From a virus (taxonomy: Duplodnaviria > Caudoviricetes), in the IMG/VR virus record IMGVR_UViG_3300045931_000347, positions 1-60,291 of that record: DNA of 60,291 bases; one strand, given 5' to 3'. This document shows positions 35,180 to 35,842 of the stretch, piece by piece; position 1 is the first letter of the stretch; every line of letters starts with the position of its first letter. The notes below the pieces were generated by a model, which saw nothing but the letters and a program-made list of their open reading frames with translations, ran no database searches and was not told the DNA's origin. The position numbers and the translations under genes were made by a program.

Positions 35180-35842
35180 TCACGTCTGTCCTGCGAGTGC
35201 GTCAACGAGCCGGTGAATGGCCCGCAACTGTCTGGCTGCCGCCCGCTCGTAGTAACCACGCACCTCGCGGGTGCCGGCTTCGGCCAGCCCGGTCCGCCAC
35301 TCGCTACGCCCGTACCGCTGCGTCATTGCGAGCACAGCCTCGCGTAGGTCGTGTGGGCCTTGGGCCTTCCAGCGCTGGACATCTTCGCGACGGCGGGCGC
35401 GCATCTCGGCGCCCAAGGTCAGTGTCAACTCGGCCATGGTGTGGCCCTCCTTCCTCGTCAATCGGTGGGCGGCAGCGACGGGGTCAACGACCACGGTGGC
35501 TCCCTCGGCGGTCAGCGCCCGGAGCGTTCTGCTCGCCGTGGCCGCGTCAACCGCGGTGAGCACGTCCACCGGCGCCGACTCGACCAGGTCCTTCGACTCC
35601 TTCAGCCCGAGTCCCACCAGTTGGCGGACCACCTTGATGACGGAGATCTTGTTCGGCCCGATCGCCTCGAGCCGGACCGTGAACTCGGTCGGCTCCTCGG
35701 TCTCCTCCTCGATCACGACCGGTGGGCTGTCCCGGACGACGGGCTCCGCGGTCACCCCGAACGTCTCGGCGAAACGCCGGTTGAACTCGGTCAGCTCGGC
35801 GAGGGTCATGGTCTTGAACCGCTCGATCAGTTGATCGCTCAT
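35180..35842 (-). CDS. rplL: Ribosomal protein bL12 (L7/L12) homologue, full length, with about 100-aa C-terminal extension
   Basis: [63 protein letters not shown]. Confidence 0.9.

Follow-up and report, generated by a model that had tools for sequence, protein, structure and literature searches.

The 60,291-nt virus record analysed here in full (the window) carries on its minus strand an open reading frame at 35180–35842 (220 aa, ATG start, TGA stop at 35180–35182) that encodes a real, phage-borne, full-length homologue of ribosomal protein bL12 of actinobacterial origin. The bL12 module is followed by a linker and, in frame, by an orphan basic tail that has a start signal of its own, and the bL12-tail gene sits in a strain-specific cassette. 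Virus-encoded ribosomal proteins are an established phenomenon; bL12, as far as we are aware, is the only multi-copy ribosomal protein, exchanges easily, and is the landing pad for all translational GTPases.

Both halves of bL12, which an earlier note on this DNA had recognised, are found by profile searches. The N-terminal dimerisation and uL10-binding domain (NTD; aa 1–35, 35738–35842, minus strand) matches Pfam Ribosomal_L12_N (PF16320) over aa 3–35 with a score of 29.2 bits that barely exceeds the cut-off of 25, and the C-terminal domain (CTD; aa 54–120, 35483–35683, minus strand) matches Ribosomal_L12 (PF00542) over aa 54–119 at 70.8 bits (cut-off 25.9). The NCBIfam equivalog TIGR00855 passes its cut-off of 84.4 bits with a score of 100.4, and aa 2–119 correspond to model positions 6–124 of 125. 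Among PDB sequences, residues 4–119 of the 120 of E. coli bL12 (1rqu) align with aa 2–119 (phmmer), and an actinobacterial-type bL12 (8yeq, residues 47–170 of 171) also aligns end to end. Because the TIGR00855 and PDB alignments span it, the bL12 module is whole, ending one residue before the cellular C-terminus. An AlphaFold2 (AF2) model of the whole protein, computed from a 78-row alignment, predicts for this part two N-terminal helices (aa 2–11 and 14–28), a disordered hinge, and a beta-alpha-alpha-beta-alpha-beta CTD at pLDDT >90.

For measures of conservation we used 77 cellular bL12 sequences, the best near-length matches of a protein search. The hinge (aa 36–53, 35684–35737, minus strand) is predicted to be flexible (AF2 pLDDT <50 at aa 33–49) and, as the earlier note had observed, does not have the usual Ala-rich composition: it is built of Pro, Val and acidic residues and departs from the Ala-rich stretch of the 77 cellular sequences. 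The NTD has a median identity of 52% to the cellular NTDs and retains its hydrophobic core. In the cellular set 46 columns reach a conservation of 90% or more; the phage protein keeps 36 of them, including every column that is 100% conserved (F54, G62, K65, I66, V68, I69, K70, R73, L78, G79, L80, E82, K84, L86, V87, P91, G114 and A115). The ten conserved columns that are lost comprise E25, four positions within aa 32–38 at the border of NTD and hinge, T76, and E96, K100, K107 and A113, the last four in and after helix 6. All invariant residues of CTD helices 4–5, which we take to be the factor-binding face, are retained. The bL12 part has a pI of 4.6 and is about 50% identical to the nearest cellular bL12, and the protein's cluster consists of a single sequence found on two contigs. 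In sum, NTD, flexible hinge, CTD and all invariant residues are common to the phage protein and cellular bL12 (RplL, L7/L12), whereas the phage hinge is not Ala-rich, its helix 6 lacks E96, K100 and K107, and 100 C-terminal residues are added. The genes differ in setting as well: the cellular gene lies beside that of uL10 (rplJ-rplL), whereas the phage gene is phage-borne, in a record without uL10.

After the CTD, which ends in GATVVVD, there is no stop codon; the frame continues through a 15-aa linker (aa 121–135, 35438–35482, minus strand) into MAELTL and the 85-aa tail. The protein thereby extends 100 residues beyond the end of cellular bL12 (about 120–130 aa), and in the extended cellular forms that we saw the extra part is N-terminal, not C-terminal. 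The earlier note's account of a 220-aa frame that enters an 85-aa basic ORF (tail pI 10.7) without a stop is therefore accurate. Its description of the read-through as a C-terminal extension holds for the 100 in-frame residues; the extra domain that it proposed can be given no function, as the tail has neither a relative nor a recognisable fold.

The earlier note had also raised the possibility of a stop lost near 35480 through error. The stretch is present in four soil-metagenome runs; each belongs to a different study, all date from 2023, and none is an RNA run. In one (X1, possibly the source sample of the record), a 36,445-nt contig of word depth 23 covers 34500–36588 with no differences and no listed variant at the junction; in another (X2), from a different sample and study, a 425-nt contig covers 35177–35601, again with no differences. 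Contigs of the remaining two runs (X3, X4), whose listed pieces span the ORF only in part, were left out of this count. Rare variants are lost in contigs, and every run shows one and the same clone; the matches are silent on selection. Since the X1 and X2 contigs match the junction exactly, the stop is absent from the DNA itself and an assembly slip is excluded. A deletion of the stop by sequencing or assembly error, which might be suspected of a single metagenome-assembled record and a protein cluster of one sequence on two contigs, is accordingly extremely improbable, given the depth of 23 without a junction variant in one sample and the identity over 35177–35601 in the other.

The linker reads as an initiation region. 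It holds the purine run AGGAAGGAGG (35446–35455), placed 8 nt before an in-frame ATG at 35435–35437 and followed by 85 codons; this is the strongest Shine-Dalgarno (SD)-like run of the locus, at a good spacing, and upholds the earlier note's claim of a strong SD and ATG at 35437 for the 85-aa ORF. The motif GGAGG by itself is frequent in the window (213 matches). The linker also contains an 11-mer, GACGAGGAAGG (35449–35459), a second copy of which (35855–35865, minus strand) lies where bL12 has its own initiation region (ATG 35840–35842). These are the only two matches in the 60-kb window, where 0.07 would be expected, and none of 100 shuffles reaches two; both copies are on the minus strand, each immediately upstream of one of the two ATGs. 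About 30 nt around the 11-mer align between the two starts with a score of 27, compared with 14.3 +/- 2.4 for shuffles, of which 1 in 2000 reaches 27; of 3000 random genome windows 11 reach this score, some of them overlapping the two sites themselves. The start region of the tail is thus related to that of bL12, and the tail consequently looks like a separate cistron. The 85 aa may be, or may have been, an independent cistron, with the fusion perhaps arising merely from the way in which the gene was captured; a shared initiation region is equally compatible with an accidental fusion at capture and with a selected one.

The tail itself (35183–35437, minus strand) is Arg-rich (15 of its 85 residues). 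Its GC content by codon position is 0.75/0.54/0.76, against 0.67/0.42/0.92 in the bL12 part; the tail keeps the low second-position GC typical of a coding frame, and its composition is otherwise unlike that of the bL12 part. In the AF2 model of the whole protein four helices are predicted at aa 124–217 with pLDDT 56–79, and a single-sequence model of the tail by itself is helical as well (mean pLDDT 72). We had considered by eye a ribbon-helix-helix arrangement (an ELTLTL strand plus two helices) and dropped it, as both AF2 models are all-helical, at moderate confidence.

Searches for relatives of the tail covered sequence, profile and structure. A word-index search of 5.8 billion proteins gave 41 candidates, none at E <= 0.01, and an exhaustive phmmer search of 1.84 billion representative proteins returned only the tail itself. 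There was no above-threshold match in Pfam, PHROGs, PADLOC or NCBIfam and no usable feature match in the ESM Atlas, where by structure only generic helical look-alikes appeared; Foldseek searches of the tail model against PDB and BFVD gave no match at E <= 0.001. Peptide-pattern scans of viral, metagenome and genome contigs found bL12-type matches only, none of them over the tail. Because neither a relative nor a recognisable fold was found, no function of the tail can be named. A complex prediction of the CTD (aa 52–121, with alignment) against the tail, run without controls, scored 0.00 and speaks neither for nor against contact.

The window is a virus record rated 100% complete by CheckV. 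It encodes a portal domain, an HK97-type capsid and an amidase endolysin, a tyrosine integrase on the minus strand (38943–39806) and, further right, a GntR-type regulator, an exonuclease and a primase/helicase-like protein; it is a complete temperate soil phage of a high-GC actinomycete. The record, classed as linear, has ends (1–126 and 60158–60283) that are identical over at least 126 bases, a sign either of terminal redundancy or of a circular assembly. The record has no PF00466 match and hence no uL10 gene, and the neighbours of bL12 are phage genes.

The bL12-tail gene is the last of a leftward run that comprises a small helix-turn-helix (HTH) protein and a DUF2637 membrane protein (35964–36542, minus strand), the latter upstream of bL12 and common to related phages. 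Within 34900–37300 the sole promoter-like site lies at 36835–36863, upstream of the DUF2637 gene. Relatives of the DUF2637 protein are encoded at eight IMG/VR loci, seven of them at 71–88% identity. Neither bL12 nor tail was found in any of the seven related phage loci (tblastn with fusion and tail, best E 0.74), and L164–L170, the related loci, show no DNA similarity to 31000–35900. Downstream of the DUF2637 gene, each of the four relatives that were aligned has a GC-rich hairpin with a T-run and then, directly, convergent lysis and tail genes. In the window, a hairpin 3' of the DUF2637 gene (35882–35913, minus strand) matches the terminator hairpin of the relatives; at this position the hairpin is kept, the T-run is replaced, and the bL12 start comes next. 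Nucleotide similarity to the related loci stops at 35903–35971, at or just upstream of this hairpin. As the related loci lack both bL12 and tail, the cassette is peculiar to this phage within the set of relatives found; its start is the former terminator, at the 3' end of the leftward operon on the integrase side.

Downstream of the gene, a GC-rich hairpin (35133–35173) with a 12-bp outer stem and without a T-run lies 6 nt past the stop codon; it is not called by a consensus terminator scan, and it separates the ORF from a convergent tRNA-like element. This element (34941–35058, plus strand), across the hairpin from the bL12 gene, scores 38.5 bits with the Rfam tRNA model (gathering score 29). 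It has a 48-nt insertion in the anticodon loop, which makes the loop about 52 nt long instead of 7, and is not called by ARAGORN, which calls no tRNA in the window. Its fold does not exceed that of shuffled sequences in stability (z -0.29), and a blastn search of cultured phages found no match to it. Candidate explanations are a disrupted tRNA, a tRNA that carries a small insert, and a decoy.

The phylogenetic affinities of the bL12 part are actinobacterial. Its nearest bL12 sequences are from Nocardioides, and in a quick maximum-likelihood tree of 98 rows it falls, with the unsure placement of such long-branch rows, in a clade of 45 (SH-aLRT 96) that also holds Nocardioides, Nocardioidaceae and Actinomycetota sequences. 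Its end branch measures 1.07 changes per site against a median of 0.049, about 20 times as long, which could reflect relaxed constraint or a new non-ribosomal role. The capsid has as its sole named relative a Micromonospora prophage (65% identity). The best reading of the cassette gene is a captured actinobacterial rplL that has diverged strongly since, with all parts of bL12 still present.

Full-length bL12 is also encoded in other viral records. A profile-guided scan of IMG/VR yielded 368 pattern matches, of which 81 were confirmed as relatives and 80 kept; we read the frames of 25 of these 80 and found an ORF with both bL12 halves in 20. Both Pfam domains were present in all five that were submitted (L172, L174, L177, L178 and L188). 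Three of the records (L172, L173 and L176) are about 150 kb long and have a GC content of 0.69; these three and the further large high-GC records L174/L175 and L177 encode a stand-alone full-length bL12 with a Pro/acidic hinge. In L172, L173, L174, L176 and L177 the hinge is of Pro, Val and acidic residues like that of the query. A single clade of these five with the query is not rejected (p-AU 0.845), the constrained tree being better by 24.7 log-likelihood units, for a group that was named after the tree was seen and that involves long branches. Nine of the ten viral records searched, including a 151-kb record with terminal repeats, have no uL10 gene. Like the query, the proteins of L172–L177 combine NTD and CTD (checked with Pfam in L172, L174 and L177), in records without uL10 among those searched; they differ in that a stop follows directly after the CTD in all six actinobacterial-type ORFs, where the query has its C-terminal extension.

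The one record of the ten with a uL10 gene is L178 (79.5 kb, 50% complete). There the gene at 2412–3283 encodes a diverged uL10 homologue (PF00466, 50.2 bits) and shares 4 nt with the start of a full-length bL12, whose hinge is non-Ala and whose branch is long (0.96). The two ORFs that flank this pair (155 and 760 aa) match no Pfam family, and the pair is either host flank or a phage-borne uL10-bL12 pair, which in the latter case would make a whole phage-made stalk. In a 35.7-kb provirus record (L188), the ORF at 2839–3432 encodes a bL12 with both Pfam domains and a C-terminal extension of about 70 aa, and its stop codon overlaps the start of the next gene. The extension is unrelated to the tail of the query (no BLASTP alignment), and the bL12 of L188 looks alphaproteobacterial. 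Among cellular proteins, in Myxococcales and elsewhere, two to four tandem bL12 CTDs occur without an NTD, some preceded by a hydrophobic stretch that by eye resembles a signal peptide.

Among cultured phages (INPHARED) the whole protein has no tblastn match at 1e-5. At E <= 1, 39 records match, none of which covers at least 80% of the bL12 module; those with 71–73% cover look, from their names and sizes, like bacterial contigs or unannotated fragments, and true phage genomes have only a 25-residue core motif in common. That bL12 homologues occur in some phages, as the earlier note had held, is borne out by the IMG/VR records with full-length bL12 and by the main text of a published survey, which describes bL12 domains in proteins of 98–724 aa from seven cultured phages of Proteobacteria, often within much larger polypeptides and acquired repeatedly (Mizuno et al., 2019, Nat Commun 10:752; PMC6375957). 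The same text reports one peptide of the bL12-domain protein of Salmonella phage FSL SP-076, detected by mass spectrometry in purified E. coli 70S ribosomes, and unsuccessful purification of ribosomes via a tagged phage bL12 (PMC6375957). Those proteins and ORF 35180–35842 have in common a virus-encoded bL12 domain in a larger polypeptide; compared with what the main text describes, the present case has a whole bL12, a temperate actinophage as its carrier, additional residues C-terminal to the bL12, and a start inside the frame (PMC6375957). The N-terminal domain of bL12 is not mentioned in that main text, and its supplements may list similar metagenomic cases (PMC6375957). Phage bL12 domains within larger proteins are thus already published, and a full-length bL12 with a C-terminal tail is a new variant; in the literature searched we found no published actinophage bL12 and no full-length fused phage bL12.

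The reading that we favour, with a probability of roughly 0.4, is that nested in-frame genes give rise to a bL12-tail fusion and a free tail, and that the fusion loads onto host uL10, bringing the tail to the stalk. The earlier note's suggestion that the protein could join the host stalk and bring an extra domain to the ribosome is in this way partly supported, by sequence. We infer both products, the binding to uL10 and any effect on translation. In this reading the frame passes, without a stop, through a copy of bL12's own initiation region into the 85-aa Arg-rich cistron, and two nested products, the 220-aa fusion from ATG 35842 and the 85-aa tail from ATG 35437, would be made. Phages commonly make use of genes nested in frame, T7 4A/4B among them. 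In T7 gene 4A/4B and lambda C/Nu3 an internal start is reportedly used in this way, and the phage locus has the same layout, an SD and ATG inside a longer frame that would give a long and a short product with the same C-terminus; here the products are predicted, and what the long form would add is a ribosomal protein, in place of the enzymatic or protease domain of those genes. The NTD of the phage bL12 would dimerise and exchange onto helix alpha-8 of host uL10, an action to be expected of the fusion because cellular bL12 is established to exchange in this way. EF-Tu, EF-G, IF2 and RF3 are recruited by the conserved helix 4-5 surface of the bL12 CTD, and a short tag at the C-terminus of L12 does not disable E. 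coli ribosomes. The basic tail might then be present in several copies at the GTPase-associated centre, where these could alter factor traffic or bind RNA. A precedent is the phage bL12-domain protein reported in E. coli 70S ribosomes (PMC6375957). If the nested-gene reading is true, an anchor, the helix 4-5 surface and an added domain would amount to a virus decorating the ribosome, not merely replacing a part of it. The locus would also be simple to work with: a single gene with two predicted products can be set beside close relatives in which it is absent.

Unlikely in itself, and ranked by us nearly as good as the nested fusion, is the reading that two working genes were joined by chance: a plain phage bL12 and an independent 85-aa protein made from ATG 35437, the junction at capture having fallen, in frame, before the rplL stop, with the fusion tolerated and without a role. 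The internal ATG with the strongest SD-like run of the locus and its good spacing, the 11-mer and the roughly 30 nt of initiation region common to both starts, and the difference in codon-position GC between bL12 part and tail all speak for it, as does the stop directly after the CTD in all six actinobacterial-type viral proteins (L172–L177). Yet every ribosome that finishes the bL12 part must still make the read-through product, whatever its use, another viral bL12 (L188) likewise continues beyond its CTD, by about 70 aa, and the sequence is identical in several soil samples. Were the fusion accidental, the locus would show how a host gene enters a phage operon, at a terminator and with a reused initiation region.

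The remaining readings take the protein off the ribosome or deny it a present function. It is rather improbable that it acts as an off-ribosome decoy or as a prophage accessory protein in defence or exclusion, with the CTD as a module that binds translational GTPases or as bait for a bL12-targeting agent, and the tail as effector or partner. Temperate actinophages often place lysogen-expressed accessory genes at the junction of the two arms on the integrase side, and the strain-specific cassette lies at just such a junction on the integrase-side strand; bL12 CTD modules also occur in many non-ribosomal proteins, such as the repeated CTDs of Myxococcales and the short CTD motifs of cultured phages. 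Against this, neither the whole protein nor the tail matches any PADLOC family at E up to 1, and the NTD, needed only for contact with uL10 and the dimer partner, is kept together with the hinge, both superfluous in a mere factor-binding bait. That a captured host gene is decaying without present function we consider quite improbable. The very long end branch, the loss of the Ala-rich hinge and of helix 6's charged face, the lack of the gene in all relatives found and the missing stop would fit decay, whereas 220 codons remain open, GC3 in the bL12 part is 0.92, the invariant residues are all kept, and the losses cluster away from helices 4–5; monophyly with five other viral bL12 proteins with a non-Ala hinge is not rejected (p-AU 0.845), in keeping with a lineage that phages maintain.

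Beyond the nested-fusion reading, a wider and frankly speculative version would have high-GC actinophages keep a full-length bL12 lineage of their own with a rebuilt Pro/acidic hinge. The bL12 of this phage would then have become a tether, and a free basic helical protein together with several stalk-anchored copies at the GTPase-associated centre, both made by nested translation, might adjust which factors are recruited or which mRNAs are chosen, in lysogeny or early in infection.

Two other proteins of the window are worth recording. On the plus strand, a single frame at 2164–8040 encodes 1958 aa, with the portal domain at aa 89–383 and a SAP domain at aa 1624–1658, a length that is unusually large for a portal-containing protein; and at 15044–16438 (plus strand), among the structural genes, lies a gene for a 464-aa protein with a SAM-dependent methyltransferase domain.
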